Shown here piece by piece: positions 3,304 to 41,190 of a stretch of DNA of 64,000 nucleotides (position 1 is the first letter of the stretch; each line of letters starts with the position of its first letter). A program made the translations under genes and the position numbers. The stretch spans positions 1 to 64,000 of the forward strand of contig JAEOUA010000003.1 in NCBI GenBank assembly GCA_016839555.1, in the 5' to 3' direction. The notes under the pieces are model-generated. The model did no database searches, was not told where the DNA came from, and saw nothing but the letters and a program-made list of their open reading frames with translations. The stretch is from Promethearchaeota archaeon (lineage in GTDB: Archaea > Asgardarchaeota > Lokiarchaeia > Sigyniarchaeales > SOKP01).

Positions 3304-3813
3304 ATGAATTTTCTACCTGCTTGTGAGACTTGTATTAAGACTGGATTTCTCTGTGTCAGATGTCAAGAGAAATTTGATGAGGGAGAAATTACTCCATTTG
3401 AATTAGATTTAGCAAAAGATTTTATTGAATTGGAGGAGAATGGTAAATTTCCATACTTAAGTGAGATTTCGTTTTATAAAGCAATTGATTATCAAGATGT
3501 TGTTATTTTAATAGTAGGAAAAGGAGATAAAATAAAAATCACGCAAAAATTACTTAATTGGATTAAAGATGTATACGAAATCGATCAGCTTATTTTAATC
3601 GAAAAAACTAATCAACCACGTCCAGTTGTTGAGGCCCTTATTGCACCAGCGAGAATAATATCTTTAAACGAAATATTCCTCGCTACTGGTGATCTCGAAT
3701 ATAAAGCAGTTATAAATAAACAGGATAAAAATAGAATACTATTTACGAAAACAGAGTTAGAAGAATTAGTAGAGGAGATTAGTGGGCAAAAAATTCGAAT
3801 AGAATTTATCTAA
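3304..3813 (+). CDS. Archaeal NusA-like KH-domain protein with N-terminal Zn finger
   Basis: LPACETCIKTGFLCVRC N-terminus; lies between L38e and Pth2 in a typical archaeal cluster. Confidence 0.75.
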   Translation: MNFLPACETCIKTGFLCVRCQEKFDEGEITPFELDLAKDFIELEENGKFPYLSEISFYKAIDYQDVVILIVGKGDKIKITQKLLNWIKDVYEIDQLILIEKTNQPRPVVEALIAPARIISLNEIFLATGDLEYKAVINKQDKNRILFTKTELEELVEEISGQKIRIEFI

Positions 3814-3906
3814 TATCTTTCCCTAATTTTTAAATAATACACTTTATCATTTAAATCCTATTTTAGATACTTACTTAATTTAAATTAAATTATTCATAAA
3901 GATTAT

Positions 3907-4299
3907 TTGGAATCCTTTTTTATAATATTTGGGTTATTTCAATTGGAAGAGTTAAAACAAGTCATCATAATCCGAACGGATTTAGGGATGAGTACCGGAA
4001 AAAAATGTGCCCAAGCGTGTCATGCCAGTATAAGTGCTTCAAATGTAGTAAGAAGAAGAAATAAAAGCGCATGGAAAGCATGGATTAATTCCGGACAAAA
4101 AAAGATCATCTTAAAGGTTGGGTCACTAGAAGAGTTATATGTAATTCAGGAGCAATTAAAAAAAGAAGATATCTCGAGTTCATTAATTAATGATGCTGGT
4201 TTAACTCAATTGCCTCCGGGAACTGCTACAGCATTAGGAATAGGTCCCGTGTTGTCTGAAAAAGTTGATAAAATAACAGGAAATTTAAAGCTTTTGTGA
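3907..4299 (+). CDS. pth2: Peptidyl-tRNA hydrolase Pth2 (true start may be TTG near 3943)
   Basis: KQVIIIRTDLGMSTGKKCAQACHA, GQKKIILKV, DAGLTQ, TALGIGP. Confidence 0.95.
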   Translation: MESFFIIFGLFQLEELKQVIIIRTDLGMSTGKKCAQACHASISASNVVRRRNKSAWKAWINSGQKKIILKVGSLEELYVIQEQLKKEDISSSLINDAGLTQLPPGTATALGIGPVLSEKVDKITGNLKLL

Positions 4300-4314
4300 G
4301 TTTGAGTTCCATCT

Positions 4315-5697: not shown

Positions 5698-5723
5698 TAT
5701 TACCAAAAAAAATATTATATACT

Positions 5724-7256
5724 TTAAGTCCTTAAAATAATTGATACTTTTTTAGTAGTTTCAAATCCAAAAATATCGATAATTTTTACTAATATATCTA
5801 TATTATTTTTTCTAGCTTTATCATAGTAATACCATCCAGTATTAAATCTCATTTTCCGCGTCTTAGGTGTTCTAAGAGAAATCCATTGGGGGACAAATTC
5901 ATTGTTATTATAATTAAAGTCTACAGCAAAGTAATCAATTGAATCTTTCCAATCGCTTATTTTTGTTCTAATTTTTTTATTTAATTCTTTGAAATACGGG
6001 AAAAAATAGCCTTCTAGAGAGAGTTTTATTCTATTATCATCTCTATTTACATTAATTTTCAAATTTGATTTTTCATTCTTTTTGGAGTTGGTTTTTTTAT
6101 TATTAATAAGAAATAATTCCGGGATTTTACCTTTATGCTCATCGCTCATGAAACTATATACCTCAAATGAATTCGAAAATTTTCCATAAAATTCATCCCA
6201 ATTTAATATATCATTGCTATGTTGTAAATTAAGCAATCTTTTTATTGTTGTGTTTATCGCATACCAATTCAGATCACATCCAATCCATCTCCTGTTTAAT
6301 TTTTCAGACACAGCTAGAGTTGTTCCAGTACCGCAAAAAAAATCCGCAATAATACTATTTTTATTGCTTGAGGCTAGGATAATTCTTTTTAATAATCGTT
6401 CAGGTTTTTGAGTGGAAAATCCTTGATATTCTAGCGTATTAGCTCTAATATAAGGAATTTTTGTCCATACATCTCGAGGGAATACACCTTTTTTTTCTAC
6501 ATATACCTTTCTACTTAATTTTTTTCCATCATGACTTCCTCCTCGATAATAAAAGTATCCCTTTTCATCCTTTTGCACAGCATTTTTGACTCTTTTAGAA
6601 TAATCCATATAGATATTCGGATCATCATTGAATATATAATCATCCGATTTAGTATAAAAGAGGATTGAATCATAGGACCTTACATAGAATCTTTTGGTTT
6701 GAGCGGAGGCGGCAGGATAATACCAGATGATTTCATTTCTAAAATTTTCGAGACCAAAAATCTGATCCATTATTAATTTAATATAATGACTAATATGCCA
6801 ATCTACATGGACATAAATAGAACCTTTTTCTGATAATAATTTTTTCATTAAACAGAGGCGCTCATATATAAAATCTAAATATGAATCTATGCCATTATTC
6901 CATTTATCGTTATATGCTATTTTTTTAAAGCTTTTGTTTGAAGTTCCTATGAAAACTTTGTGATAAAACTCAGAATTTGTAAAAAATGGGGGATCAATAT
7001 AAATTAGATCTATTTTTTCTTCAAATTTTTTTAATAAATATTGTAAAATTTCTAAGTTATCACCCCAAATTAATTTATTAATCCAATTTTCTTTAATCTT
7101 CTTAAGAAAATTTAAAAACTCATTATTTTTTAGGAAGTTTTGATCTATAAACTTATTAATAATTTTAGGGCAAATTAAATCAGAATAATTTGACCAGCTT
7201 TCAACCGATACTTTATTTGAAATTTGTTTCTGCTTTTTCCATTTTAATTTTACCAT
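5724..7256 (-). CDS. Adenine-specific DNA methyltransferase (beta class, type III Mod-like), orphan
   Basis: Motif IV IYIDPPF precedes motif I DFFCGTGTT; also TQKPERLLKRII. Confidence 0.9.
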   Translation of the reverse strand: MVKLKWKKQKQISNKVSVESWSNYSDLICPKIINKFIDQNFLKNNEFLNFLKKIKENWINKLIWGDNLEILQYLLKKFEEKIDLIYIDPPFFTNSEFYHKVFIGTSNKSFKKIAYNDKWNNGIDSYLDFIYERLCLMKKLLSEKGSIYVHVDWHISHYIKLIMDQIFGLENFRNEIIWYYPAASAQTKRFYVRSYDSILFYTKSDDYIFNDDPNIYMDYSKRVKNAVQKDEKGYFYYRGGSHDGKKLSRKVYVEKKGVFPRDVWTKIPYIRANTLEYQGFSTQKPERLLKRIILASSNKNSIIADFFCGTGTTLAVSEKLNRRWIGCDLNWYAINTTIKRLLNLQHSNDILNWDEFYGKFSNSFEVYSFMSDEHKGKIPELFLINNKKTNSKKNEKSNLKINVNRDDNRIKLSLEGYFFPYFKELNKKIRTKISDWKDSIDYFAVDFNYNNNEFVPQWISLRTPKTRKMRFNTGWYYYDKARKNNIDILVKIIDIFGFETTKKVSIILRT

Positions 7257-7342
7257 ATATATTACTAATAATTAGCCAAAAGATTTAATTTTATTAAGTA
7301 TTTTTTCATTTAAATTAGAATACTATTAGTTATAATAAGAAT

Positions 7343-8662
7343 ATGTCAGATGATTTAAGCGATTGGAGAAAAACTCACTATACAGTTGATGTCTCTGCTG
7401 AAATGGAAGGGGAGGAAATAATTCTTGGTGGATGGGTTCGCAATTGGAGAGACTTAGGTGGCTTAAAATTTATCAATCTTCAAGATAAATATGGAGAGCG
7501 CCAAATTACCATAAAGAAAGGGGTTGTATCAGACGAATTATTTGAAAAAACAGATTTCAGATACCAGTATTGTATTATGGTGAAAGGTAAGGTCAAAGCC
7601 TTCAAAAAAGCTCCTGGTGGGGTAGAAATAATACCCTCAGAGTTAAAAATATTAAATAAAACTCCCGAAAAGCTCCCAATTGATATGACTGGTGAAAGCA
7701 TAAGTGCTTTAGATTTAAGATTGGATAATAGAGCATTAGATTTGCGATCTCTCAGAAATCAAGCAATCTTTAGAATAAGAGGGCAGGTTTTAAGGTCTAT
7801 TAGACTATTTTTATTTGAACGCGATTTTACAGAAATAACTACCCCCAAAATCATAGGATCTGCTACAGAGGGAGGGACCGAATTATTTCCTATTATGTAT
7901 TTTGATAGAGAAGCTTTTCTAACTCAATCTGCGCAATTATATAAAGAACAATTGAGTGGGGTTTATGAGCGAGTATTTGAATTAAGTCCTTGTTTCCGAG
8001 CTGAAAAGAGCCATACAAAACGACATTTATGTGAGATATTTATGTTAGATATTGAGATGGCTTTTGCCGATATGTCGGATGTATTAAAAATATTAGAAGA
8101 ATTAATCTATAATGTTATAAAGGATATCAGAGAATATGAGTGGGAATCTCTTAAATTTTTGAATATGGAAAAGATTACAACATTACCAGAAGTTCCCTTT
8201 CCTAGATATAAATATGAGGAAATTGTTGAATTAATTAATAATAATTTTAAAATACCTATAGAATTTGGAGAAGATATTCCCACAGAAGCTTATAGACAAT
8301 TAGAAGAAGAATTGCCGGGTTATTACTATATTACGCATTGGCCAATGGAAATTAAACCTTTTTATATTATGCCCTCCGAAGATCCAAAATATAGTGAATC
8401 TTTTGACTTGCAAAAAGGATGGTTGGAACTTTGTTCAGGTGGGACTCGGGTTCATGATAAAGAGATGTTAATGAGAGCATTAGAAGATAAAGGTTTGAAT
8501 CCAGAATCATTTAAGTCTCATCTAAATATTTTCGATTACGGATTACCTCCGCATGCTGGAATGGGATTAGGTATTGCGAGATGGGTAGCAATTCTATGTG
8601 GCTTAGAGGACGTTAGAGAAGCTGTAATGTATCCCAGGACTCCAGACAGATTACAACCATAA
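7343..8662 (+). CDS. aspS: Archaeal aspartyl-tRNA synthetase, probably non-discriminating
   Basis: GWVR..RDLGG, TEGGTELF, FRAEKSHTKRH, GLPPHAGMGLG, YPRTPDRL; Pro in the KAPGGVEI loop. Confidence 0.95.
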   Translation: MSDDLSDWRKTHYTVDVSAEMEGEEIILGGWVRNWRDLGGLKFINLQDKYGERQITIKKGVVSDELFEKTDFRYQYCIMVKGKVKAFKKAPGGVEIIPSELKILNKTPEKLPIDMTGESISALDLRLDNRALDLRSLRNQAIFRIRGQVLRSIRLFLFERDFTEITTPKIIGSATEGGTELFPIMYFDREAFLTQSAQLYKEQLSGVYERVFELSPCFRAEKSHTKRHLCEIFMLDIEMAFADMSDVLKILEELIYNVIKDIREYEWESLKFLNMEKITTLPEVPFPRYKYEEIVELINNNFKIPIEFGEDIPTEAYRQLEEELPGYYYITHWPMEIKPFYIMPSEDPKYSESFDLQKGWLELCSGGTRVHDKEMLMRALEDKGLNPESFKSHLNIFDYGLPPHAGMGLGIARWVAILCGLEDVREAVMYPRTPDRLQP

Positions 8663-8706
8663 TTCTAATTAATATATTATTTGAAATAAATTATTTTTAT
8701 AAACTT

Positions 8707-9621
8707 ATGTCAGAAGAAGTAATTAATAATTATATTAAGGCTGGAAAAGCTCTTGTTAAAGCAAAAGAACTAGCTAAAAAAATAACCAAACCGGGAGTTC
8801 CATTCCTAGAAATCGCTGAAAAATGCGAAGCAAAAATTATAAATAATGGAGCTGAATTGTCCTTTCCAATAAATATTTCTTTAGATGATATTGCCGCACA
8901 TTATAGTCCTCCCATTGGGGATAAAACATTAGTCCCTAAAAAAGGTTTATTAAAAATAGATATTGGATCCCATTATAAAGGATATATAGCCGACTCCGCA
9001 ATAACTCTTAATTTAGACGGGGATCCTAATCTTCAAAATTATTGCGAGGCGGCAGAAGAAGCATTAAATGCTGCTATCGCTCGCTTTAAACCAGGAACTA
9101 AATTATTTGAATTGGGAGAGGCGATTGCTAATGAAATTACCAGTAGAGGCTTAAGACCTATTACTAATTTAGGGGGTCATAAATTAGAAAAATATCTCCT
9201 TCATGCGGGAGCTTTTATTCCTAATTTTAGGGAAAAACAACATAATCAAGTACTAAAACCAGGAGATGCCTATGCTTGTGAACCGTTTGCCACTTCTGGA
9301 GCGGGTACGGTTGTTAATGGAAAAGACGCTTATATTTTCCGATTTATAAGAAAAAAAACAAAAAACATTTCTTATGAGCATTTGAACTATATGAATAAGA
9401 TTGAAGAACATTTCAATCATTTACCATTTTCACCACGATGGATCCTCCGAAAAAAAATTATCCCCTTTAAGAAAATCGATAGAATAATAAATGCCTTTTT
9501 AAGAAATAATATAATAGAAAAGTACAATATCTTAATTGAAAGAACTAATGAACCTGTAGCGCAGTTTGAGCATACAATTGTAATAGATAATGATGGAAAT
9601 ACCATCGTAACTACGAATTGA
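8707..9621 (+). CDS. map: Methionine aminopeptidase type II
   Basis: FPINIS..DIAAHY, DIGSHYKGYIADSA, LGGH, CEPF, AQFEHT. Confidence 0.95.
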   Translation: MSEEVINNYIKAGKALVKAKELAKKITKPGVPFLEIAEKCEAKIINNGAELSFPINISLDDIAAHYSPPIGDKTLVPKKGLLKIDIGSHYKGYIADSAITLNLDGDPNLQNYCEAAEEALNAAIARFKPGTKLFELGEAIANEITSRGLRPITNLGGHKLEKYLLHAGAFIPNFREKQHNQVLKPGDAYACEPFATSGAGTVVNGKDAYIFRFIRKKTKNISYEHLNYMNKIEEHFNHLPFSPRWILRKKIIPFKKIDRIINAFLRNNIIEKYNILIERTNEPVAQFEHTIVIDNDGNTIVTTN

Positions 9622-9787
9622 TTACTTTAAAGAGTTTTTGAAGCATATTCATTTATAAATTAAGCGAAAAAATAACTCATTTAAAATTTCTTTCCTATTG
9701 ATAAATTAATATAAAATTCTTCTATAAATTAAATTCCAATAATAATTTTTATTCTCCAATAAAAATAGACATACACGACTAAGAGTT

Positions 9788-10657
9788 ATGGCCCATAAAT
9801 TTGAAGTACAGAACAAGAATAAATTTTTGAAAAACGTTTATATCATTATTTTATGTGCTGGAAAAGGAACGCGATTAAGAAAGATCACTAAGAAAATTCC
9901 TAAACCATTAATAAAAGTTAAGAATTTAGACAATAATCCAATATTATTCTACATTCTCAACTCACTGGTCAAGGCTCAAGTGAAAAATTTCGCAATTATT
10001 ATAGGATATTTGGGTCATAAGATTGCATCATTTATATCATCCTTATCAAAAATAAATCAATTTGAAAATTTGAATATCCAAATAATTGATTCCGAAGGGC
10101 AATATAAACATGGACCTTTATATTCATTTCTCTCCATTCAAAAAAATAATGAAATATTTCAACAAAATAAAGTATATCTCGTGATTCCAGGAGACACAAT
10201 TTTTCAGACTTCCTATTTTCAGCGATTAATTGATTTTATAATAAATAATATTAAAATTCTAAGTAAATATCCTGCTCTGTTTTATCGAACAATCTCTCTA
10301 GAAGATTTACAAAAAGAGTTAGGGTTTGAAGAACAGAAATTAATTTCAACCATAAAAACGAAGCCTTTCCAAAATCAATTTTTAGACAAAATAGTCACGA
10401 AAAAATTGATGGATTATAATAAAGAGAAAAAAATTAATCAAATTTACCCTACATTTCTTTTATCTTATCAAAGTGTCAGAAAAATTATAAATATTACAAA
10501 ATCTTTTGACGGAACTTCAATTAAACAAGTGATAAATTATCTCTGTCGAAGCGGAGATAAAGTCTATGTTAAAAAATTACAAAGAAAATATCTTTTTTAT
10601 GATATTGATAATGATAAAAATCTGGAAAGAGTACAAAAGGAAAAATTAAAAGGCTGA
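9788..10657 (+). CDS. NTP-transferase (sugar-phosphate nucleotidyltransferase family)
   Basis: IILCAGKGTRL...IPKPL, PGD, YDIDN. Confidence 0.8.
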   Translation: MAHKFEVQNKNKFLKNVYIIILCAGKGTRLRKITKKIPKPLIKVKNLDNNPILFYILNSLVKAQVKNFAIIIGYLGHKIASFISSLSKINQFENLNIQIIDSEGQYKHGPLYSFLSIQKNNEIFQQNKVYLVIPGDTIFQTSYFQRLIDFIINNIKILSKYPALFYRTISLEDLQKELGFEEQKLISTIKTKPFQNQFLDKIVTKKLMDYNKEKKINQIYPTFLLSYQSVRKIINITKSFDGTSIKQVINYLCRSGDKVYVKKLQRKYLFYDIDNDKNLERVQKEKLKG

Positions 10658-10719
10658 AAAATTATAAAAAGAAATAGCAAAGATCAGTAAGAAGAAAACC
10701 CGGAAAATAAAGAAAAAAG

Positions 10720-10917
10720 TGGATAATAGGAATTTCACTGAAACAATTTATTAACGTGCATTGTTTCAATGAATCGAAACGGATACGTTAGAAAAAATTA
10801 TTGCTAATGCTTTCTGGAGTTTCAATGGTTTTGTGTATTTTACTTTAGAACTCATAATAAATGCAATTAATTAAGAGTAGTTAATTTTCTGGTTGTTAAA
10901 ATGCTTTGATAATATCC
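10720..10917 (-). ncRNA. Candidate structured ncRNA A (~198 nt)
   Basis: Minus-strand BRE/TATA (AAAGTTTATA, 10943-10952) about 26-30 nt upstream. 5' GGAUAUUA pairs with 3' UAUUAUCC. A 14-bp hairpin (10734-10773) is fully paired only on the minus strand (one G-U). Second hairpin at 10850-10878. Followed by a U6 tract. Confidence 0.5.
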
Positions 10918-11002
10918 GAGATATAATGTTAAGTGATGATAATATAAACTTTAATATCAATCTGGTGTATTATTTTATATAGTAAAAAGAAAAACGCTTT
11001 TA

Positions 11003-11152
11003 AGATATTTCTAAAGAAATATTAGAGACTTCTGGTTACACAGCAATAAATATAAATAAAATGTCGGCAAGTTTACCCGAACTAAACCAACTTTATGTCT
11101 CATTGAGAGGGTATTTATTATTAAACCAATGCAAATTATTTCCTATTATCCA
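11003..11152 (+). ncRNA. Candidate structured ncRNA B (~150 nt), divergent from A
   Basis: TTTATA at 10974. Starts AGATATT like A and ends with the same 13-mer TTCCTATTATCCA. Nested stems GAGAC/GTCTC, TGGTT/AACCA, TCGG/CCGA, then CATTG/CAATG. Confidence 0.38.
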
Positions 11153-11336
11153 GATAAATAATGGGCTTTCAAATATTTAAATCTTTTGCTAATTAATTAA
11201 TAATTTGTTAGATTATGAGATAAAATATTTAATTAAAACAAATTTAAAAGCTATAAGCCGTTTCTTTATATAAATAAAAATTATTATAGTATTTCTCATT
11301 TGATAATTGTTAATCAGTTAATACTAGTGATTCACC

Positions 11337-24373: not shown

Positions 24374-24871
24374 ATGCTAAAATATAAAATAACCCTGTTT
24401 GGACCCGCTGCAGTAGGCAAAACAAGTATTTTACTTAGATATATTAAGGATTTCTTTTCTCATAATCTTAAAAAGACCATAGGAAGCAATTTTTTAGTTA
24501 AAGATCTTGTTATTGATGGAAAGGATGTAAGGTTAATGTTATGGGATATAGGTGGTCAAGAACGTTTCAGTTCTATTAGATCTATCTATTTCAAGGGAAG
24601 TAATGCAGCCTTAGGAGTATATGATATAACTAATAAACAAACTCTTCTTAAAATTCCCGGTTGGGTTAGTTCTATTAAAAAATCCGTTAAGAAGGGAATA
24701 CCTATGATTTTAGTGGGTAATAAAATTGATTTAGAAAGAAAAGTAGATAAAAAAGAGGGAGAGGATTTAGCAAAAAGATTAGGTTGTGATTATATGGAAA
24801 CCTCCGCCAAAACGGGGGAAAATGTAAGTATGGTATTCGAAAAACTTGCGAAAGCTTGTTTAGAAGGCTAA
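24374..24871 (+). CDS. Rab-like small GTPase
   Basis: G1 GPAAVGKT, G2 TIG, G3 WDIGGQE, G4 NKID, G5 ETSAK. Confidence 0.95.
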   Translation: MLKYKITLFGPAAVGKTSILLRYIKDFFSHNLKKTIGSNFLVKDLVIDGKDVRLMLWDIGGQERFSSIRSIYFKGSNAALGVYDITNKQTLLKIPGWVSSIKKSVKKGIPMILVGNKIDLERKVDKKEGEDLAKRLGCDYMETSAKTGENVSMVFEKLAKACLEG

Positions 24872-33619: not shown

Positions 33620-34399
33620 TTAGACTTTTTTTAAAGAAATAAATCCCAATTTAATAAGATTTTTGCAGATATTATGAACATTATCTCTGGGTATATTAAG
33701 TTCTTGGGCAATATATTTAATTGATTTTTTTCCGTCAATTTTTTTTAAAACATTCTTTGATTTCTCTCCCGTTAAATAAAAATCTGGATTTATATTATCT
33801 GAAATTTTTAATAAAGGTATAAGCTTTTGGTTCATTGAATTAAAATTCTGAATCTCGTGAGATTCTTTGAAATCCTTAAAATCTTTCTTGTCTTTTTCAT
33901 TCAATAAGGTAACATTATCTATTTTTTTTTGAATTCTTTCAAACAAATCTAAGATTTTTTCTTTAAAATCAATATCTTTCTCTTCTGAGATTCGCTCAAC
34001 TTGTCTTTTAACAATATTGGTAAAATTAATAAAAGCTTCGGTATCGCCGTCCCAGTTAGAAATTTGATTTATATCATAATTCTTTAAAAATGTATAAGAC
34101 ATTCTTCTCAGAAATCTCTGAGCATTTATACTATTTGTGCTTTCATCATATGAAGCTAAAAAAATTAAATTCGGGAGCTTCTTATTTTTTAGAAATGCTA
34201 ATCTAAGACTTGAATTAGAAAGTTTTAATTCTTTTATAGAACCTAAATCTTCAAATTCTTCAGAAAATGAACTTAATGCGGTTAAGAATCCTGAGATTAA
34301 AATCAAATTATTTTGATTAGAGATAAAATTTTTTGATTTAGAGAAATTTTTAGAAAACAAAGGTAAACCATCTTTAATAATTAATACATCTCTAATCAT
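33620..34399 (-). CDS. Longin/roadblock-like N-terminal domain plus C-terminal wHTH protein
   Basis: IIKDGLPLFSK...LISGFLTALSSFS (longin-like); IDGKKSI..IA..L......I...L.K.G.I (wHTH). Confidence 0.75.
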   Translation of the reverse strand: MIRDVLIIKDGLPLFSKNFSKSKNFISNQNNLILISGFLTALSSFSEEFEDLGSIKELKLSNSSLRLAFLKNKKLPNLIFLASYDESTNSINAQRFLRRMSYTFLKNYDINQISNWDGDTEAFINFTNIVKRQVERISEEKDIDFKEKILDLFERIQKKIDNVTLLNEKDKKDFKDFKESHEIQNFNSMNQKLIPLLKISDNINPDFYLTGEKSKNVLKKIDGKKSIKYIAQELNIPRDNVHNICKNLIKLGFISLKKV

Positions 34400-34686
34400 A
34401 ATTTAGCTTCAAACGGTTATTATATAAAAATTTTTAAACTAAAATTGAAATTATAATTCAATAATATAATAGATTAATTCTATGTAAAAAATATTATAAC
34501 ATGACGATAATATATAGCCAAATATCGATATGTTATTTCCTATGATTATAATAAAGAAACTTTTTTCTATAGATACTTTTAAATAATAATTCTATTATTA
34601 TAAGAGTTAAAGTTTAAATACAAAAATTTTCACATTAGATTTTATAATAATCTTGAAAATTATAAAAGAAAAATAGATGAAATAAT

Positions 34687-35121
34687 ATGAGTGAAAACTT
34701 AAAAGATAAAATGGAAAAAGTTAATGAAATATTAGAAGTTTCGGTTCCTATTGTAAAAATTTTTGAGGGGCTTATTGTCGCTTCGGTTATTGGTACTTTA
34801 GACACCGAGAGAACGCAACGAATTATAGAGAATTTATTAGAAAAGGTAGTTAAAGAGGAAGCTCGAATTGTTCTTTTTGATATAACCGGCGTTCCAACAG
34901 TAGATTCCCGAACAGCTCAACACTTAATTGATACCGCTTCTGCAATCCGTCTTTTAGGATCAGAAGTAATAATCACAGGAATTAATCCTACCATAGCTCA
35001 AACATTAGTACATATAGGTATAGCTCTCTCAGATATCAAGACAGCTAGAAGTTTAGCGTTAGGGGTTGAAATGTCCTTGGAGATTCTCAATAAGAAAATT
35101 GTTAGTAAAGATAGCGAATAA
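34687..35121 (+). CDS. rsbR: RsbR-like STAS protein (no N-terminal sensor domain)
   Basis: IGTLDTER, DITGVPTVDS, AIRLLG..VIITGINP.IAQTLV.IG. Confidence 0.9.
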   Translation: MSENLKDKMEKVNEILEVSVPIVKIFEGLIVASVIGTLDTERTQRIIENLLEKVVKEEARIVLFDITGVPTVDSRTAQHLIDTASAIRLLGSEVIITGINPTIAQTLVHIGIALSDIKTARSLALGVEMSLEILNKKIVSKDSE

Positions 35122-35142
35122 GATTAGAGGTTAAAAGTTTTA

Positions 35143-35502
35143 ATGTCAGATTTAAAGGAATCTATTTCAATCAATAAAATTCGTAATGCCATATTAGTAA
35201 AAATACCAGCGAATGCTACGGATGAAGAAATGGAGATCCTACAAGAAAAAATTTTAAAAAAAATAAATGAATATAACATCAATGGTGTGATTTTGGATAT
35301 TTCAAATATAGAAATAGTAGACTCTTTTTTTGCAAGAATTATTGCTGAAACAACTCACATGGTCAATCTTATGGGAGGGAAAGCGGTTGTAACAGGAATG
35401 AAACCAAGCGTTGCTATAACGACAGTGGAATTGGGTTTTAATCTAGAAAACATAAATTTTGCATTGAATGTAGATAAAGGCCTTGATTTATTAAATCTGT
35501 AG
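35143..35502 (+). CDS. rsbS: RsbS STAS antagonist
   Basis: GVILDIS..EIVDSFFAR (phospho-Ser site), LMG...VVTGMKP.VAIT.VELG. Confidence 0.92.
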   Translation: MSDLKESISINKIRNAILVKIPANATDEEMEILQEKILKKINEYNINGVILDISNIEIVDSFFARIIAETTHMVNLMGGKAVVTGMKPSVAITTVELGFNLENINFALNVDKGLDLLNL

Positions 35503-35568
35503 TATATTAGATAAAACCACATTAAAATATTAATTTGATTTTAAAAAGAATTTTAAGAGAAAAAGATA

Positions 35569-35979
35569 TTGAATAAAGAAGATAAAGGAGAATTAGAGAT
35601 AAAAAGTGAAACTGACCTAATTCGGGTTAGAAGGTTATTACGCGAAATCACCCATAATATGGGGTTCCGTACAACCGATATTACTCGAATCATAACTGCA
35701 GCATCAGAATTAGTTAGGAATACAGTTGATTATGCTGGGAAGGGAATGATGAATTGGTATATAATATCAACCGATAATAAGGAAGGAATTAAAATAATTT
35801 TTACGGATAATGGTCCTGGTATCCCTGATATTGAAAAAGCAATGGAACCAGGATTTTCTACTTCAAATTGTTTAGGAATGGGATTATCTGGTACGAAAAA
35901 ATTGATGGATGAAATGGAGATTAAATCTGAAGTAGGCAAGGGAACAACAGTAATTATTAAAAAGTGGTTAAAGTCTTAA
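35569..35979 (+). CDS. rsbT: RsbT Ser/Thr kinase
   Basis: RIITAASELVRN...YAG.G, DNGPGI.DI, GFST...LG.GL.G.KKLMD. Confidence 0.93.
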   Translation: MNKEDKGELEIKSETDLIRVRRLLREITHNMGFRTTDITRIITAASELVRNTVDYAGKGMMNWYIISTDNKEGIKIIFTDNGPGIPDIEKAMEPGFSTSNCLGMGLSGTKKLMDEMEIKSEVGKGTTVIIKKWLKS

Positions 35980-36986
35980 TGGGGAAAGAGGAATGGATGA
36001 TGGAAGTTATTCATCCAAGGGATAAGATAAGAGTTAGGAATAAAGCAAGAATAATTGCAAAAGAAATTGGATTTATTAAGGAAAAGACAATAGAAGAGAT
36101 TGTGATCACCGTAAGCGAATTGGCCTCCAATTTAATCAAACATGCTAAAGGTGGAAAAATAGTAATTAATTCATTAGAAGAAAAAGGCAAAAAGGGTATT
36201 CAAATAGAATCCATAGACAAAGGACCAGGTATTGATGATATAGAGTTAGCGATGGTTGATGGTTTTTCAAAGAATAGTGGTTTAGGTTTTGGTTTAGGAA
36301 CAATTAATCGATTAATGGACAGTTTTAAAATAACTTCTCGAAAAGGTTTTGGAACTCACATTATTGTCAAACGATGGATACAAGAAGGTTTTGAAAAAGA
36401 AATATTTCCCCTTGATATTGGTGGAGTTTCTAAACCTTATCCAGGATTAAAAGTGAATGGGGATGCATTTATTATCAAAAGATGGAAGGAAAAGATATTA
36501 ATTAGTGTGATTGATGGTTTAGGGCATGGTCCAATGGCTAATAGCGCGTCAAATATAGCATTAAGATATATTAAAAAGAATTTCGATCAATCACTTAATC
36601 AAATCATTCGCGGTGTACATATGGCATGCCAACATTCTCGAGGTTTAGTAATGGCTTTAGCAAGACTTGATTTAATAAATAAGGATATTTTCTTTACGGG
36701 TATTGGTAACATTGAAGTGCGAATATTTGGTAATAAAATGCAAGATTCTTTTATATCTCGAAGAGGTATTATGGGGCGCAATATACCAACACCTAAAATT
36801 ATGAAACATCATTGGGAACCTGGTTTTATAATGATTTTATTTTCTGATGGTATAAAATCAAGATGGCAATGGAAAGATTATTCTTATTTATTAGATAAAC
36901 CAGCAAGATTTATTGCTTATCGTATGTTGGAAGACTTAGCAAGAGATGACGATGATGCTACAATAGTTGTTGTGAAAGAATATTGA
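35979..36986 (+). CDS. RsbT-like HATPase fused to an RsbX/SpoIIE PP2C phosphatase
   Basis: SELASNLIKHA, DKGPGI; NGD, IDGLGHG, GIGNIE, FSDGI, DDAT. The ATG overlaps the rsbT stop (TAATG). Confidence 0.9.
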   Translation: MGKEEWMMEVIHPRDKIRVRNKARIIAKEIGFIKEKTIEEIVITVSELASNLIKHAKGGKIVINSLEEKGKKGIQIESIDKGPGIDDIELAMVDGFSKNSGLGFGLGTINRLMDSFKITSRKGFGTHIIVKRWIQEGFEKEIFPLDIGGVSKPYPGLKVNGDAFIIKRWKEKILISVIDGLGHGPMANSASNIALRYIKKNFDQSLNQIIRGVHMACQHSRGLVMALARLDLINKDIFFTGIGNIEVRIFGNKMQDSFISRRGIMGRNIPTPKIMKHHWEPGFIMILFSDGIKSRWQWKDYSYLLDKPARFIAYRMLEDLARDDDDATIVVVKEY

Positions 36987-37007
36987 AAGATAATTTAGTA
37001 TATTAAA

Positions 37008-38288
37008 TTGAGAAACTTAAAGGTGTTTTATATTAAAAAAGAAGAATTAAACAAAATATTAAAGGAACAACAAGATACAATTCAAAAGCTAACTGAAGAA
37101 TTAATAGAATCTAACCGAGGCATGATAGCTTTAACGCTTGAGTTAGAAAAAGCTCAAGAAGAATATCAAAATATATTTGAAAATAGTATATTAGGTATTT
37201 ATAAAACTACAGGTAATAATCGCTTCAAAATAGTAAATCCTAAAATGGCAAAAATTCTAGGCTATGATACCCCCGAAGAAGTTATTGAAAATATAGATGA
37301 TATTGATACTCAAATATATGCATCTTCTGATGAGCGAGATGATTTTAAAATATTAATAGAAAAATATGGTGCTATTTCTGATTTTGAATTAAAAATCTAT
37401 GATAAAGAAGGTAACCAAAAATGGATTTTAGAAAATACTAGATTGCTCACAGACGAAAAAGGTCGATTTTTGGGATATGAAGGAATAGTTCAAGATATAA
37501 CTGAAAGGAAAAAAATTGAAGAATTAGAAAAAAAAAATTATGAATTACAGGAATTAAATAAAAAGTTAGAAAAATCCAAGAAAATGTATCATGAAGCATA
37601 TATTAGAGCTGAATTATATAAAGATCTATTCGCTCATGATATTACTAACATTTTGCAAGGGATATTTTCGGGAATGCAATTTTGTGAAATGACACTTAAA
37701 AATCCTGAGGAAATAAAAGATAATATAGAGATAATAAAAAATCAAATTATGAGAGGAGCGAATTTAGTTTCTAACATTCGAAATCTTTCAAAAATTGAGG
37801 AAGGTGGAATAGAGCTTGAGGAAAGGAATATTTGTAAGGATTTAAATGATTCTATTATTTTTATAAAAGATATTCTCCCTGAACGAAGAAAGAACATCCA
37901 ATTCGATTCTATCGATAAAAGATACATTGTTCTAGCTAATAATTTTTTAAAAATTGTGTTTGATAACATCTTGTTCAATGCGGTACAACACAATAAGAAT
38001 TCCATAGTTGAAATTATAATTAGAATTATAAGGGAGAAAAGATGGGATATTAACTTTATTAAAATTGAATTTATAGACAATGGTAAGGGCGTTCGCGATA
38101 TTCGTAAAGAAAAGATCTTTAAAAGGGGATACAATGAAATTGGAAGCATTTATGGGACGGGTTTGGGTTTATCACTGGTAAAAAAAATAATTGAAACTTA
38201 CAATGGAGAAATATGGGTTGAAGATAGGATCAAGGGAGATTATAATAAGGGAAGTAAGTTTATTATATTAATCCCAGAGGTGAATTAG
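37008..38288 (+). CDS. Coiled-coil + PAS histidine kinase
   Basis: ELIESNRGMIALTLEL, PAS/PAC ending QDITERK, H-box YKDLFAHDITNILQ, DNGKG, GTGLGL. Confidence 0.93.
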   Translation: MRNLKVFYIKKEELNKILKEQQDTIQKLTEELIESNRGMIALTLELEKAQEEYQNIFENSILGIYKTTGNNRFKIVNPKMAKILGYDTPEEVIENIDDIDTQIYASSDERDDFKILIEKYGAISDFELKIYDKEGNQKWILENTRLLTDEKGRFLGYEGIVQDITERKKIEELEKKNYELQELNKKLEKSKKMYHEAYIRAELYKDLFAHDITNILQGIFSGMQFCEMTLKNPEEIKDNIEIIKNQIMRGANLVSNIRNLSKIEEGGIELEERNICKDLNDSIIFIKDILPERRKNIQFDSIDKRYIVLANNFLKIVFDNILFNAVQHNKNSIVEIIIRIIREKRWDINFIKIEFIDNGKGVRDIRKEKIFKRGYNEIGSIYGTGLGLSLVKKIIETYNGEIWVEDRIKGDYNKGSKFIILIPEVN

Positions 38289-38289
38289 A

Positions 38290-38655
38290 CTGGAAAAAGT
38301 TTTTATTGTTGAAGATGAACCTACAGTTCAATATTTTTATAAAAAACTTTTAAACATCAATGGTTTTGAAGTGTTGGGTGTTGCAGAGGACGGAGAAGAA
38401 GCTATTCGCATGTTCAAATCGTTCAAGAAGAAACCAAAAATAATTTTAATGGATCAGCGAATGCCAGTAAAAACGGGACTAGAAGCTACAAAAGAGATTT
38501 TACAAATAGATAATAAAGTAAAGATTATTTTTGTTAGTGCTGATTTATCTATTAAAGAAGAAGCCTTATCTATTGGAGCTTTTAGCTTTTGGGATAAGCC
38601 CTTTTCAATAGATCAATTAATAGAGGAGATTAAAAATGCAATTATGGCTTGTTAA
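38290..38655 (+). CDS. Single-domain response regulator (receiver); CTG start
   Basis: The upstream in-frame sequence supplies KVFIVEDE; also ILMDQRMP, VSAD, KPF. SD GAGGTGA at 38277-38283. Confidence 0.9.
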   Translation: MEKVFIVEDEPTVQYFYKKLLNINGFEVLGVAEDGEEAIRMFKSFKKKPKIILMDQRMPVKTGLEATKEILQIDNKVKIIFVSADLSIKEEALSIGAFSFWDKPFSIDQLIEEIKNAIMAC

Positions 38656-38855
38656 TTTTAATTTCTGATTAAATCCCACATTGTACATTCCCTTTATCTA
38701 TTCTGTTTTTTATTTTATAGATGTTTAATAAAATTTCTACCAATTAGTCATTTGTATATTAAAGAACGTCTCAATATTTCAAAAATGAATTTATTTGAAA
38801 ATAAAAATATATATTATATATATCCAAAATATTACATTTTATTGCTTTTTATAAT

Positions 38856-39962
38856 ATGATTAAAATAAGAGCTCCAGGAAGGATAACTCTATTTGGAGAG
38901 CATCAAGACTATCTCAATTATCCAGTAATTTCAATGGCTATATCTAAATATATTTATTTAAAAGCAGAGAGAATATCTGATAAAAACTTTTTAATAAATT
39001 TAGCAGATATTAATAAAACTATTGAAATTCCCTTAACAAATAAAGAAGTGGACTATGAATTGAAAAGAGACTATTTGAGAAGCGGCTATAATCATTTATT
39101 AAGAAAGGGCTTTAAATTTGAAAAAGGCTACAAAATAACAATTTCGGGAGATATTCCCATGAATGCTGGCGCCGCTAGTTCTTCTGCCTTAGTTATCGCA
39201 TGGCTCTATTTTTTATATTTAATTTCAAAATATAAGGTTAATAAATCTCAATTAGCTTTAGATGGCTATAATACTGAAGTAAAAGAATTTGGAGAGGCAG
39301 GAGGCAAGATGGATTTTTTTACTTCTGCTTATGGAGGGCTTTTAAATCTAAATTTAAATACAAAAATACCGATTATTAAAAAATTTAATATAATTTTAGA
39401 TGGAATTATACTTGGAGATTCATTAGAAAAAAAAAATACCGTAGAAGATTTAAAGGGAACTAAAATAGAATCTATAAAAGCGTTTAGAGCGCTAAAGAAT
39501 ATTATTCCTTCATTTAATAGATTCAACACTCCATTAGAAGAGATAAAAGGGCATCTTAGGAGTATAGAGAAACCGTATCAGAATAAAATAATTGGAAATA
39601 TAATTAATAGAGATCTAACAAAACAGGCAAAAAATTTATTGTTGACATATAAATCTAAACTTCACAAGAATATCTTATCTAAAAGAAATTCAATCTATTT
39701 TTATAAAAAATTAGGAAATTTACTTATTAAACATCAGCAACAATTAAGAGATAATATTAAAATATCTACTAAAAAAATTGATAATATGATTTCAAGTTGT
39801 ATAAAAGCTGGAGCATATGGTGGGAAAATTAATGGATCGGGCTTTGGAGGTACTATGTTTGTGCTCGCTCCTGGAAAAGAGAAAGAAGTATATAAGATTA
39901 TAAAAGAGCTTGGAGGCAAACCATATAAAATAAAGAGTAGCCTTGGAGTTGGAACCTTTTAA
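38856..39962 (+). CDS. GHMP kinase, galactokinase family
   Basis: APGRITLFGEHQDY, IPMNAGAASSSA, G.MD, GGKINGSGFGG. Confidence 0.9.
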   Translation: MIKIRAPGRITLFGEHQDYLNYPVISMAISKYIYLKAERISDKNFLINLADINKTIEIPLTNKEVDYELKRDYLRSGYNHLLRKGFKFEKGYKITISGDIPMNAGAASSSALVIAWLYFLYLISKYKVNKSQLALDGYNTEVKEFGEAGGKMDFFTSAYGGLLNLNLNTKIPIIKKFNIILDGIILGDSLEKKNTVEDLKGTKIESIKAFRALKNIIPSFNRFNTPLEEIKGHLRSIEKPYQNKIIGNIINRDLTKQAKNLLLTYKSKLHKNILSKRNSIYFYKKLGNLLIKHQQQLRDNIKISTKKIDNMISSCIKAGAYGGKINGSGFGGTMFVLAPGKEKEVYKIIKELGGKPYKIKSSLGVGTF

Positions 39963-40359
39963 TAATATTTCAAGTCCATTAAAATAAGGATCCATTAATA
40001 AAATTAAAAATATTATTTTCTCGGATAATAAATTCTAACAATTTTAATATAATATTTCCAAGTATATATTTTATACAATTATTTTAGAAATATAAATATC
40101 AAAAAATAAAGTCAGGAAAAGAAATAGCGAGGATAAGAGATAAAAATTTAAATTTTAATAAATAGAAGAACCAGAGGGATTCCATATAATATCAAATAAT
40201 AATGAGTTTTTCTTAAATTCGAAAAAAAAGATGAAATTATTACTAAATCATTTAAAGTCAGTAAAATATGATGATCTAGCTATTTTTTTTTCACATTTCA
40301 TAATGAAATTAATGACTGTGCAAAATATTAAGAAATGAAAAATTAAAATAACTAGCATA

Positions 40360-40749
40360 ATGAAGAAAGAAATTAAAGTAAAGGTTAAAAATCTTTTAGA
40401 AGAAATACAAAATTTGGATTTATATTCTCAAATTGAATTTATAGTATTATACGGTTCAGCATTGTCTAATTCATATTTGAAGGATAGTGATATAGATATT
40501 TGTATATATCTTTCGAATAAAAAAAATAGGAAAGAATTTGTTGAATTTCGTTTAGAACTTTTAAAAAAAATTGAAGAGAATTTTGATATACAGATTTTTC
40601 AATTATTACCAATTTATGTTCAAATAGAAGTATTAAAAGGCGAGATTCTCTATGTAAAGGATTTGGATAAAATGTATGAAATTGCATATAATACTATTGA
40701 GGAATATGAAGACTTTTATCCGCTCTTTAAAGATTATATAGAAAGGTGA
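40360..40749 (+). CDS. Minimal nucleotidyltransferase antitoxin (MntA-type)
   Basis: LYGS-x10-DID motif. Confidence 0.9.
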   Translation: MKKEIKVKVKNLLEEIQNLDLYSQIEFIVLYGSALSNSYLKDSDIDICIYLSNKKNRKEFVEFRLELLKKIEENFDIQIFQLLPIYVQIEVLKGEILYVKDLDKMYEIAYNTIEEYEDFYPLFKDYIER

Positions 40750-40755
40750 ATAATT

Positions 40756-41190
40756 TTGAAAGATTTAAGAATTGATATTATTAAAACAAAATTAAAAATT
40801 ATCGAAGAAAATATTGAAATCGTTAAAAAATTCCTTCCAAATACTTTCAAAGAATTTAAATCTTTAGGATTATTAAAAGATGGCATATATAAGAAAATTG
40901 AGGCTTCTATTCAGGAGACATTAAAAATCTGTTCAATTATTAATGCTGACTTAAATTTAGGAATCCCAGCTAATAGAGAGGATATAATTTCTTCCTTGTT
41001 TGATAAAAAAATAATATCGAAAAAAATGAGAAAAATTATTCATGAATTAAAAGGATTTCGAAATTTTTTGGTTCATCGCTATGGGGAGATTAATGATAAG
41101 ATAGCATTTGATGATATTAAAAATGGTTTAGCAGATTTTAGTTTATTTAAAAAAGAAATAAATAATTTCTTAAATTCTCTTGATTTATAA
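40756..41190 (+). CDS. HEPN/DUF86 RNase toxin (HepT-type)
   Basis: FRNFLVHRY (Rx4H-x-Y); directly downstream of the MNT gene. Confidence 0.92.
   Translation: MKDLRIDIIKTKLKIIEENIEIVKKFLPNTFKEFKSLGLLKDGIYKKIEASIQETLKICSIINADLNLGIPANREDIISSLFDKKIISKKMRKIIHELKGFRNFLVHRYGEINDKIAFDDIKNGLADFSLFKKEINNFLNSLDL

Follow-up and report, generated by a model that had tools for sequence, protein, structure and literature searches.

A putative bacterial-type stressosome module joined to a two-component pathway in a Lokiarchaeia-type archaeon

We have identified a six-gene operon at positions 34687-38655 of a 64,000-nucleotide stretch of DNA (the window) from a Promethearchaeota archaeon. It encodes, in order, a STAS-only RsbR, an RsbS, an RsbT, a fusion of an RsbT-paralog kinase with an RsbX-type PP2C phosphatase, a PAS histidine kinase and a bare receiver (Table 1). 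Judging from sequence, the operon is probably a bacterial-type RSTX stressosome module that a Lokiarchaeia-type archaeon acquired horizontally and plugged into its own two-component pathway. Modules of this type are widespread but little studied, and the Asgard copy is a variant of them, not a new kind of system. Archaeal stressosome copies are mentioned in the literature, none of them in Asgard archaea. An earlier note on this DNA knew of no characterised Asgard example, and indeed no paper linking stressosomes and Asgard archaea in substance was found.

Table 1. Features of the operon and its immediate flanks (window coordinates)
Feature	Coordinates	Strand	Pfam domains	Description
Presumed promoter region	34400..34686	.		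AT-rich intergenic DNA between the operon and a divergent upstream gene
RsbR-like co-antagonist	34687..35121	+	STAS	144 aa; STAS-only, short N-terminal helix; acceptors T40, S74
RsbS-like scaffold/antagonist	35143..35502	+	STAS	119 aa; acceptor S61
RsbT-like switch kinase	35569..35979	+	HATPase_c, HATPase_c_2	136 aa; GHKL serine/threonine kinase
Kinase-PP2C fusion	35979..36986	+	HATPase_c_2, SpoIIE (PP2C)	335 aa; N-terminal RsbT-paralog kinase, C-terminal RsbX-type PP2C
Chimeric sensor histidine kinase	37008..38288	+	PAS, HisKA, HATPase_c	426 aa; begins with ETN helix; H210 in HisKA
ETN helix motif	37089..37148	+		Kinase residues L28-E47; EL-x-E-(S/T)-N-x-G-x-x-A-L-T-L-E-L-E
Native Loki-type DHp and catalytic core	37524..38285	+		In 135/135 genomes of the same Asgard family
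Shine-Dalgarno-like GAGGTGA	38277..38283	+		Within the last kinase codons, 6 nt upstream of CTG 38290
Stand-alone receiver	38290..38655	+	Response_reg	~121 aa if from CTG 38290 (presumed start); frame open from 38284
Possible archaeal terminator	38703..38715	+		Oligo-T run ~50 nt past the receiver stop

The operon and its host

The earlier note had described a complete stressosome-type operon of six co-oriented genes in a probable Asgard archaeon. All six ORFs are present where it had placed them, separated successively by 21 nt, 66 nt, a 1-nt overlap (TAATG), 21 nt and ~1 nt, and their Pfam domains agree with that description. Every catalytic motif and all phospho-acceptors of the two STAS proteins are intact, and the genes are under purifying selection (dN/dS 0.13-0.40 against the orthologues in genome G185). 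The region upstream of the first gene holds many TATA-like runs; a transcription start is not assignable in DNA of 28% GC.

The operon belongs to a Promethearchaeota (Lokiarchaeia-type) genome and is not the product of a chimeric assembly. The AspRS encoded in the window is 75-85% identical to those of Promethearchaeota MAGs, and the window also encodes a Ras-family GTPase and an archaeal ThrRS editing domain, which bears out the proposed Asgard host. The closest named relatives of the RSTX genes are bacterial, and the source genome (92% complete) carries a CheckM-type contamination of 6.4%. However, we give next to no credence to a bacterial contaminant or an assembly chimera in an archaeal bin, as the operon sits 34 kb into a 515-kb contig and is flanked on either side by Asgard markers, its GC content equals the 29-30% of all contigs of the genome, and its kinase core and receiver belong to native Loki families. 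The earlier note had reckoned with a mis-binned or chimeric contig; what was found are Logan contigs of an independent assembly (run X1) that cover 33747-36689 and 36669-40236 with zero differences and join the operon to both flanks. Additionally, an orthologous operon of 63-76% identity is present on a 102-kb contig of the Promethearchaeota MAG LW40_87.

STAS proteins and their switch kinases

The RsbR-like protein matches Pfam STAS with E = 2.5e-13, and its best solved match is Listeria RsbR residues 149-277 (7B0U; E = 3e-32, ~50% identity). In this alignment T40 (in LDTER) is paired with Listeria T175, equivalent to B. subtilis T171, and S74 (in VDSRT) with Listeria T209, equivalent to B. 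subtilis T205. The RsbS-like protein matches B. subtilis RsbS (6JHK, E = 5e-24), Listeria RsbS (E = 8.5e-22) and Moorella MtS (2VY9, E = 4e-18), with S61 (in VDSF) aligned to B. subtilis S59. The three acceptor sites proposed earlier, including Ser at the T205-equivalent position, are thus confirmed, each at the level of the single residue, by alignment to solved stressosome chains. The description of RsbR as STAS-only holds as well: the frame is open for 146 codons only, and the alignment begins at the end of the RsbR linker helix. The sensorless RsbR is a conserved form, with at least 10 relatives of 133-150 aa (60-91% identity) that have S/T at both acceptor sites, and a dN/dS of 0.13 against G185 (0.33 for the RsbS-like gene). 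Since RsbS alone forms an icosahedral 60-mer (PMC6760441), a STAS-only core is plausible.

The genome holds exactly two STAS domains, both in the operon. With no STAS protein outside it, there are no RsbR paralogs elsewhere, an absence that a genome of this completeness and contamination does not make absolute, and the earlier suggestion that such paralogs supply the input does not hold.

The RsbT-like kinase carries an N-box (E47/N51), G1 (D80-G82-G84) and G2 (G103-G105). Its nearest models and best solved matches are SpoIIAB and RsbW, and every related locus has this gene in third place, behind R and S. We assign it as a probable RsbT by family, size and synteny because no solved RsbT chain was matched, the comparison chains containing none.

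The start codon of the fusion gene, ATG 35979, overlaps the RsbT stop; an in-frame GTG also lies upstream at 35964. The fusion protein is 41-42% identical to the RsbT-like protein. Among solved structures, its PP2C half is matched by Moorella MtX (3ZT9, E = 3e-16) and by B. subtilis RsbX (3W40, E = 3.5e-8). All family-invariant residues are present (E47, N51, D80, G82, G84, G103/105/107, D162, D179, G180, H183, D290, D325 and D326), and 917 homologues were found at E <= 1e-10. The single PP2C domain and the two HATPase_c_2 (RsbT/RsbW-type kinase) domains of the genome are all within the operon.

A simple partner-switching circuit would dispense with the 60-subunit core: the STAS proteins would be soluble RsbT antagonists like SpoIIAA/RsbV, and the kinase-phosphatase pair would set their phosphorylation state and so control the histidine kinase. 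Without an N-terminal domain on RsbR, both STAS proteins do resemble small anti-anti-sigma-type proteins, they show weak NCBIfam matches to SpoIIAA and anti-sigma-antagonist models, and the best solved match of the RsbT-like kinase is, as noted, SpoIIAB. We nevertheless consider such a circuit quite improbable, as the two proteins match stressosome RsbR and RsbS specifically and across the entire core domain (~50% identity), far above other STAS proteins, and are assigned to different paralogs (R versus S). The cassette moreover has bacterial RSTX orthologues whose RsbR is full-length, and STAS-only RsbS can build an icosahedron by itself.

The output kinase and its receiver

The histidine kinase has all its motifs (H210, N324, D357-G359-G361 and G383-G385-G387) and is a chimera of a stressosome-linked ETN helix and PAS domain with a native Loki core. 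Residues 1-172 share 69-77% identity with the first kinase of G185, while for residues 173-426 the figure is 54-55% with the kinases of G241 and G254, two genomes of the same Asgard family, and at most ~30% with bacterial kinases. This core has many paralogs (45-56% identity) with varied N-terminal regions, including further copies in the source genome.

The ETN helix, with invariant E31, L32, G38, A41, L42 and E45, is a candidate docking site for the stressosome kinase. It matched no Pfam family and no solved structure. In a survey of loci chosen for bearing the fusion gene, so that the helix co-occurs with both kinase domains, an HMM of the helix (alignment A2) matched 90 of 3323 ORFs; 73 of these are the ORF directly downstream of the kinase-PP2C gene, and the remainder are mostly over-extended calls of such ORFs. 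A conserved ETN helix thus marks the gene downstream of RSTX-type modules. The helix may instead be the target of the fusion's kinase-like domain, or a conserved dimerisation or signalling helix that travels with the cassette. Its co-occurrence with both kinase domains would permit this, as would its resemblance to a plain coiled coil in Pfam and the fact that G241 and G254, where it is undetectable, manage without it although their RSTX modules are followed by the same kinase core and receiver. Such alternatives are somewhat unlikely, however, given that the proteins bearing the helix right after the module differ widely (200-800 aa, PAS present or absent, many phyla), that invariant Gly and Ala are unusual for a generic coiled coil, and that it occurs once in the whole genome although many kinases share the core family.

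The receiver has an acidic pocket (E8/D9), the phospho-acceptor D55, S83 and K103. Response_reg profile positions 1-110 are matched at 38299-38631, that is, by a full-length receiver. Bare receivers are the norm in this genome (~11 of 16). The earlier note was right about a bare receiver as output but had delimited it as 38371-38655; the gene is longer, from ~38290. A start at GTG 38371 was rejected, since the truncated product would then lack beta1-alpha1 and the acidic pocket, with the Pfam match setting in only at profile position 26, whereas the open frame encodes the complete domain.

No ATG, GTG or TTG lies upstream of beta1 in the frame open from 38284, which makes the expression level of the receiver uncertain. 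At the homologous positions G241 has ATG and TGG, the window CAG and TGA. Together with the missing sensor of RsbR, the lost start codon could suggest a decaying relic that no longer signals. This is very unlikely, as the catalytic and acceptor residues are intact, dN/dS is low throughout the operon and the sensorless RsbR is kept in its relatives. Three genomes preserve the receiver N-terminus in frame while lacking a canonical start (identity with G241 and G254, 70-74%). The same lack is found in 4 of the 15 receiver genes checked in the source genome. This pattern speaks for an unusual way of initiating translation rather than for decay. The arrangement of GAGGTG, 5-6 nt and a near-cognate codon recurs in G185, in G254 and in a paralogous kinase-receiver pair of the source genome (contig C5). 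A paralogous receiver has TTG at the codon homologous to CTG 38290.

Distribution, proposed mechanism and known systems

Across the genomes compared, the module is rare, patchy and polyphyletic in Asgard archaea. The Asgard survey called for earlier gave RsbR-like genes in 9 of 400 genomes and in 0 of 6 of the same genus, while the order R-S-T-fusion-HK occurs in many bacterial phyla, haloarchaea and methanogens (Methanotrichaceae). The RSTX proteins share 45-58% identity with their bacterial counterparts versus 34-52% with those of G241/G254. In a phylogeny of the kind the earlier note had hoped would reveal a donor, Asgard copies fall among bacteria at no fewer than three places, and a single Asgard clade was rejected (AU test, delta lnL 76, p = 7.5e-5). 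These results indicate that the RSTX module entered Asgard archaea more than once by horizontal transfer. Searches of the genome for sigma-70 and RsbU_N (PF08673) found neither, the former in keeping with the sigma-less archaeal host described earlier.

We propose that the RsbR-like and RsbS-like proteins form a turret-less STAS core that would sequester the RsbT-like kinase. On activation, RsbT would phosphorylate RsbS S61 and RsbR T40/S74 and be released; free RsbT could then bind the N-terminal ETN helix of the dimeric histidine kinase and alter H210 autophosphorylation, a functional analogue of RsbT binding to RsbU_N and its linker. The phosphoryl group would pass to D55 of the co-translated receiver, which would make protein contact with some partner. 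The RsbX-type PP2C of the fusion would reset the core, its RsbT-like domain serving as docking module or second kinase. Because there are neither RsbR paralogs nor an RsbR sensor domain, input would be supplied by the kinase's PAS domain, by the balance of phosphorylation in the core, or by both; of the two sources suggested earlier, paralogs fall away and PAS is the only recognisable sensor left. Kinases can serve as stressosome outputs (PMC12143880, PMC9237108). An RsbT-VvD1 interaction could not be shown in Vibrio (PMC9237108). It is also conceivable that the ETN helix came along with the cassette as an ordinary signalling or dimerisation helix.

Vibrio vulnificus has a minimal rsbR-rsbS-rsbT-rsbX locus with a downstream two-component system, VvD1/VvD2 (Heinz et al. 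2022, PMC9237108; PDB 7O0I). Both loci have the RSTX order with the phosphatase right after RsbT, two-component genes directly downstream (co-regulated in Vibrio) and a patchy distribution within the genus, and both lack sigma-B, RsbU and RsbR paralogs. However, Vibrio RsbR carries a haem-globin sensor and its RsbX is a single-domain PP2C, whereas in the Asgard host RsbR is STAS-only, the PP2C is fused to an RsbT-like kinase domain, and the kinase joins an initial ETN helix to a native archaeal core.

To the B. subtilis/L. monocytogenes stressosome (RsbRA-RsbS-RsbT, RsbX; RsbU-RsbV-RsbW-sigma B; 6JHK, 6QCM, 7B0U) the STAS core is ~45-50% identical, with acceptors at the T171, T205 and S59 positions, a GHKL switch kinase and an RsbX-type PP2C in common. 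It differs in the missing N-terminal domain of RsbR, in Ser for Thr at the T205 position, and in a genome without RsbU_N, RsbV/W or a sigma factor, the output being a histidine kinase and bare receiver.

Quin et al. (2012) reportedly described a Moorella thermoacetica stressosome with a non-sigma output, a diguanylate cyclase bearing RsbU_N, in contrast to the ETN-helix kinase of the Asgard operon. In that system (MtR-MtS-MtT-MtX-MtG; 2VY9/3ZTB, 3ZT9), MtX is the best solved PP2C match and MtS is matched by RsbS.

Released RsbT has been proposed to bind an N-terminal dimeric helical module, order a coiled-coil linker and switch on a dimeric effector, and RsbU_N-bearing kinases occur in some proteobacterial stressosome operons (Baral et al. 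2025, PMC12143880). Here, PF08673 is undetected, and the putative docking site consists of one helix, ~20 to 50 residues long, that has a conserved motif of its own. The closest parallels are uncharacterised R-S-T-(kinase-PP2C)-HK cassettes of Methylococcales, Dehalococcoidia, Acidobacteriota, anammox bacteria, haloarchaea and Methanotrichaceae, which have the same gene order, the same fusion protein at 45-55% identity and a downstream kinase that likewise opens with the ETN helix. Their RsbR mostly bears sensor domains of 130-300 aa and their kinases are mostly long bacterial types, whereas the clade of the Asgard operon combines a sensorless RsbR with a Loki-type kinase core and receiver.

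Operon content and the missing RsbR sensor domain

The six open reading frames of the operon share one orientation, with intergenic gaps of 21 nt, 66 nt, -1 nt (TAATG), 21 nt and about 1 nt in order, and an oligo-T run lies downstream of the final stop codon. The Pfam domains, in gene order, are STAS; STAS; HATPase_c/HATPase_c_2; HATPase_c_2 with SpoIIE (PP2C); PAS, HisKA and HATPase_c; and Response_reg. Comparison with the orthologues in G185 (Promethearchaeota isolate LW40_87) gave dN/dS values of 0.13-0.40, indicating purifying selection.

The RsbR-like protein (144 aa) aligns with the STAS half of Listeria RsbR (7B0U residues 149-277; E = 3e-32, about 50% identity), a match far stronger than that to RsbS among the solved structures. 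By alignment, T40 corresponds to Listeria T175 and B. subtilis T171, and S74 to Listeria T209 and B. subtilis T205. The RsbS-like protein (119 aa), a single STAS domain, matches the RsbS of B. subtilis, Listeria and Moorella (E = 5e-24 to 4e-18), and its S61 falls on S59 of B. subtilis RsbS (E = 5e-24). All three phospho-acceptor sites named in an earlier note on this DNA are thus correct. The third gene product is a Ser/Thr kinase of 136 aa from the GHKL group that includes RsbT, RsbW and SpoIIAB, and its N, G1 and G2 boxes are all intact. The gene directly follows rsbS, a position conserved in related loci, and would be RsbT rather than RsbW, an orthology that rests on synteny.

The fourth gene is a fusion. 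It begins with a kinase domain that shares 41-42% identity with the third gene product and ends with an RsbX-type PP2C domain that has as its best solved relatives Moorella MtX (3ZT9, E = 3e-16) and B. subtilis RsbX (3W40, E = 3.5e-8). The kinase motifs and all metal-binding aspartates (D162, D179, D290, D325 and D326) are invariant across a 24-member alignment and present in the window copy. The PAS histidine kinase encoded next has a phospho-acceptor at H210 and complete ATP-binding boxes (N324, D357-G361, G383-G387), and the receiver retains the acidic pocket E8/D9 (VEDE), D55, S83 and K103. By these residues, the two proteins are a two-component pair, with predicted phosphotransfer between them.

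An N-terminal sensory (turret) domain of RsbR, for example globin-like, LOV or PAS, was tested for and is absent. The protein consists of the end of the RsbR linker helix and the STAS domain, its alignment begins at Listeria residue 149, and the frame, open for just 146 codons, is not extendable, in agreement with the STAS-only RsbR described earlier. A search of 5.8 billion proteins returned at least 10 distinct relatives of 133-150 aa (60-91% identity, whole query covered), and G185 has a 148-aa orthologue (74-77% identity). The start is shared among these relatives, and Ser or Thr is kept at both acceptor positions in 11 clade members. The sensorless RsbR is therefore real, and the clade has conserved it. 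RsbS consists of nothing but a STAS domain and by itself forms a 60-mer icosahedron in crystals (PMC6760441), which makes a putative turret-less RsbR-RsbS core of about 60 subunits, which would sequester RsbT, structurally plausible.

The 64-kb window lies at the start of a 515-kb contig, and GC content is 29-30% in all 12 contigs and alike in the operon. The AspRS encoded in the window is 75-85% identical to those of Promethearchaeota (Lokiarchaeia-type Asgard) MAGs, and an archaeal-type ThrRS is encoded near the operon. Also present is a small GTPase of the Ras family (Pfam Ras, E = 2e-50), one of the eukaryotic-signature proteins typical of Asgard, which serves here as a taxonomic pointer only. 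In the Logan assembly of a marine-sediment run, zero-difference contigs link the operon to both flanks and also reproduce the kinase-receiver junction; this run may be the source sample, and the comparison is thus independent of the assembler and not of the data. Short 'joints' in the contig comparison, with sides of 21-30 letters in AT-rich DNA, were treated as spurious. Contamination or an assembly chimera is therefore rejected on the contig context, GC content, AspRS, the Ras and ThrRS neighbours and the Logan contigs across both flanks.

Two other neighbours were observed. A divergent gene encodes a 259-aa protein with weak C-terminal winged-helix matches (MarR_2/HTH_24) and an N-terminal region, without domain match, that starts MIRDVLIIKDGLPLF; it is not conserved beside the module in G185, so that a connection with the operon is improbable. 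Nucleotidyltransferase (Polbeta/NTP_transf_2) and HepT-like RNase genes follow some 1.7 kb after the operon and form a toxin-antitoxin pair of the MNT-HepT type.

Based on a genome-wide profile search, the only two STAS domains, the only PP2C and the only two clear HATPase_c_2 domains of the genome all lie in the operon, and no RsbR paralogue or further PP2C was found elsewhere in this assembly (92% complete, 6% contamination). The proposal that input comes from RsbR paralogues elsewhere therefore does not hold, since none is available to supply sensing, and the kinase PAS domain is the only recognisable sensor domain. RsbU_N (PF08673) and sigma-70 (PF04542) gave no match in the genome, while control genomes responded; the expected lack of a sigma factor is thereby confirmed.

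Output kinase, receiver start and the ETN helix

Sequence identity splits within the kinase gene. RsbR, RsbS, RsbT, the fusion protein and kinase residues 1-172 (helix and PAS) are 63-77% identical to G185, and the RSTX proteins are 45-58% identical to bacteria and 34-52% to G241 and G254, two genomes of the same Asgard family as the window. The kinase core (residues 173-426) is 44% identical to the distal pair of G185, about 30% or less to bacteria and 54-55% to G241/G254, and the corresponding values for the receiver are 53%, about 30% or less and 71-74%. The core family occurs in 135/135 genomes of the window's Asgard family, in many paralogous copies (45-56% identity) with varied N-terminal regions. 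The output kinase is thus a chimera, a stressosome-associated N-terminus joined to a native Loki kinase core, with its cognate receiver. In G185 the two kinase parts sit in separate kinases with two ORFs between, and a deletion fusing them would be the simplest origin of the chimera.

The receiver start previously placed at GTG 38371 is wrong, because the Pfam match from there begins only at profile position 26 and beta1-alpha1 would be missing. The frame is open from 38284, immediately after a TGA, and encodes the full receiver, with Response_reg profile positions 1-110 matched in a six-frame search. No ATG, GTG or TTG was found upstream of beta1 in the window or in the orthologous receivers of G185 and G254; that of G241 has ATG. 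The frame of the receiver relative to the kinase varies: it is +1 in the window genome, +1 in G185 and -1 in G254, and a paralogous pair on contig C5 has both in one frame, with ...PEVS-TAA closing the kinase and ATA GTT AGA ... opening the receiver. A conserved programmed frameshift yielding a kinase-receiver hybrid is therefore unlikely and was discarded as the general explanation. The recurring element is an SD-like GAGGTG(A) within the final kinase codons, with a near-cognate codon 5-6 nt further on. This codon is CTG in the window, ATA both in G185 and in the C5 pair, and ACG in G254; two paralogous receivers of the window genome have TTG at the homologous codon. We infer that receiver initiation is coupled to the kinase at the candidate CTG 38290, with ATT 38284 less likely.

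A canonical start is lacking in 4/15 receiver genes checked in the window genome, with beta1 conserved in frame, and coupled, non-canonical initiation may possibly be a property of Loki-type kinase-receiver pairs. Gene callers will miss or shorten such genes. The genome has 16 receiver domains, about 11 of them in frames of 150 aa or less; the bare receiver output noted earlier is thus normal for this organism.

The motif EL-x-E-(S/T)-N-x-G-x-x-A-L-T-L-E-L-E (looser: A-L-x-x-E-L-E), provisionally termed here the ETN helix, opens the product of the next gene after the fusion in Bacteria, haloarchaea, Methanotrichaceae and Asgard. In the window kinase it spans residues 28-47, within the first ~50 residues (HMM 75.6 bits, i-E = 2e-21), and it occurs only once in the genome despite the many kinases there. 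Run against the 3323 ORFs in the fetched loci, the HMM gave 90 confident matches, of which 73 are the ORF immediately downstream of the fusion gene; most others are over-extended calls of such ORFs. RsbT switches on RsbU via its N-terminal dimerisation domain and linker (PMC12143880), and proteobacterial stressosome operons include kinases with RsbU_N (PMC12143880; PMC9237108). By this analogy, and from its position-specific conservation, the ETN helix is the best candidate for a site through which the kinase, once released, affects the output.

That the helix is itself RsbU_N or another Pfam family was rejected, a Pfam scan at E <= 10 giving just coiled-coil noise, and a profile search of solved structures returned nothing meaningful (best E = 0.034, a liprin coiled coil). 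The HMM detected no copy in G241 and G254. In these genomes, which represent the second Asgard RSTX lineage, the short kinases after the module hold N-terminal DEL-x-x-SN-...-L segments that could be very divergent ETN helices; the HMM gives this no support. One ETN kinase of G128, another Asgard genome, has two tandem helix copies (residues 1-55 and 65-117).

Distribution and origin of the module

The order R-S-T-(kinase-PP2C fusion)-HK is common, being found in Methylococcales, Dehalococcoidia, Acidobacteriota, anammox bacteria, Firmicutes, haloarchaea and Methanotrichaceae, and 917 homologues of the fusion protein were counted at E <= 1e-10. The Asgard-wide survey suggested in the earlier note shows RsbR-like genes to be rare, with 9/400 genomes and 8/85 genera having them and 0/6 other genomes of the window's genus. 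Sensor-fused RsbR paralogues do occur in Asgard: G128 has two (423 and 697 aa), in a locus with S, T, the fusion and two kinases bearing the ETN helix, and G004 has one as a second RsbR. In G004 and G002, closed 2.8-Mb Asgard genomes of another family, the fusion order is reversed (PP2C first, kinase second), and no histidine kinase follows.

In a tree of 110 fusion proteins, the window copy groups with G185 and five metagenomic proteins in a clade (support 99) that lies within the bacterial sequences. The copies of G241 and G254 are placed elsewhere, G128 pairs with a Desulfobacterium, and haloarchaea, Methanotrichaceae and Methanoperedens branch separately. A single Asgard clade was rejected by an AU test (delta lnL 76, p-AU 7.5e-5) on a 45-row subset of the 110-row set, with the taxonomy of unnamed metagenomic rows assumed. 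By the scattered placement and this test, the RSTX module was imported from bacteria to Asgard several times. No single donor lineage emerged for the window clade, whose sister group is weakly supported (85-90 SH-aLRT); the nearest named relative, a Dehalococcoidales MAG, stands at only 49%. The locus of that MAG (L006) has the order R-S-T-T-fusion-HK-REC-HK-REC, with two tandem RsbT genes, and an RsbR ORF of only 127 aa, possibly a start-codon artefact; RsbR in its sister MAG (L008) has 416 aa.

Coordinates of the operon, its neighbours and the compared loci (C, contigs of the window genome; L, fetched loci)
Feature	Sequence	Position	Strand
Ras-family small GTPase	window	24374-24871	+
259-aa protein	window	33620-34399	-
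Logan contig, first	window	33747-36689	
Six-gene operon	window	34687-38655	+
Logan contig, second	window	36669-40236	
MNT-HepT pair	window	40360-41190	+
Receiver without canonical start (operon)	C1	38284-38655	+
Receiver without canonical start	C5	103139-103480	-
Receiver without canonical start	C7	177720-178088	+
Receiver without canonical start	C7	308011-308445	+
RsbR ORF, Dehalococcoidales MAG	L006	6037-6420	+
Module with two sensor-fused RsbR	L150 (G128)	3452-11203	-
Short kinase	L151 (G254)	4136-5020	
Reversed fusion	L152 (G004)	5932-6915	-
Reversed fusion	L153 (G002)	4775-5758	+
Short kinase	L154 (G241)	4686-5561	

Implications and relation to known stressosomes

A literature search found no paper that links stressosomes to Asgard in substance, and the locus is the first documented Asgard stressosome-type module found. 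It is characterised by a conserved sensorless RsbR, a kinase-phosphatase fusion, a native output that is chimeric and a receiver with an unusual start. Sensing by stressosomes is attributed to the N-terminal RsbR domains, and the real signals of these complexes are still debated. A clade without RsbR sensor or paralogues offers a clean test of whether the core, kinase and phosphatase signal alone or gate a separately sensing kinase. We know of no kinase-linked stressosome module, those of Vibrio included, with a demonstrated coupling mechanism, and the ETN helix provides a concrete, mutable candidate for signal passage from non-sigma-B stressosomes to histidine kinases.

Taken together, these features allow a reading that we put forward tentatively and consider rather doubtful as a whole: the sensorless, core-only stressosome would be a phosphorylation-state integrator or timer and not a sensor, the ETN helix a portable, undescribed RsbT-docking adaptor, and the receiver a product of start-codon-independent translational coupling. 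If so, fusion to the adaptor would place any host kinase under the control of a horizontally transferred RSTX module; in the window that kinase belongs to a native Asgard two-component pair. For Asgard biology, a complex bacterial signalling machine has been taken up more than once and joined to a native kinase family that is strongly expanded, an example of these archaea assembling their regulatory networks out of components from bacteria. None of the findings points to a connection with eukaryotic signalling.

Among known systems, the sigma-B-type general stress response (RsbU-RsbV-RsbW-SigB) differs from this one, its RsbU_N effector and alternative sigma factor being absent from the window genome. 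Judged by its genes, the locus would instead be an RSTX stressosome module in all but the RsbR sensor domain. Modules of the four genes rsbRSTX are found widely among bacteria 'and even some archaeal species', and two-component genes often lie beside them (PMC9237108).
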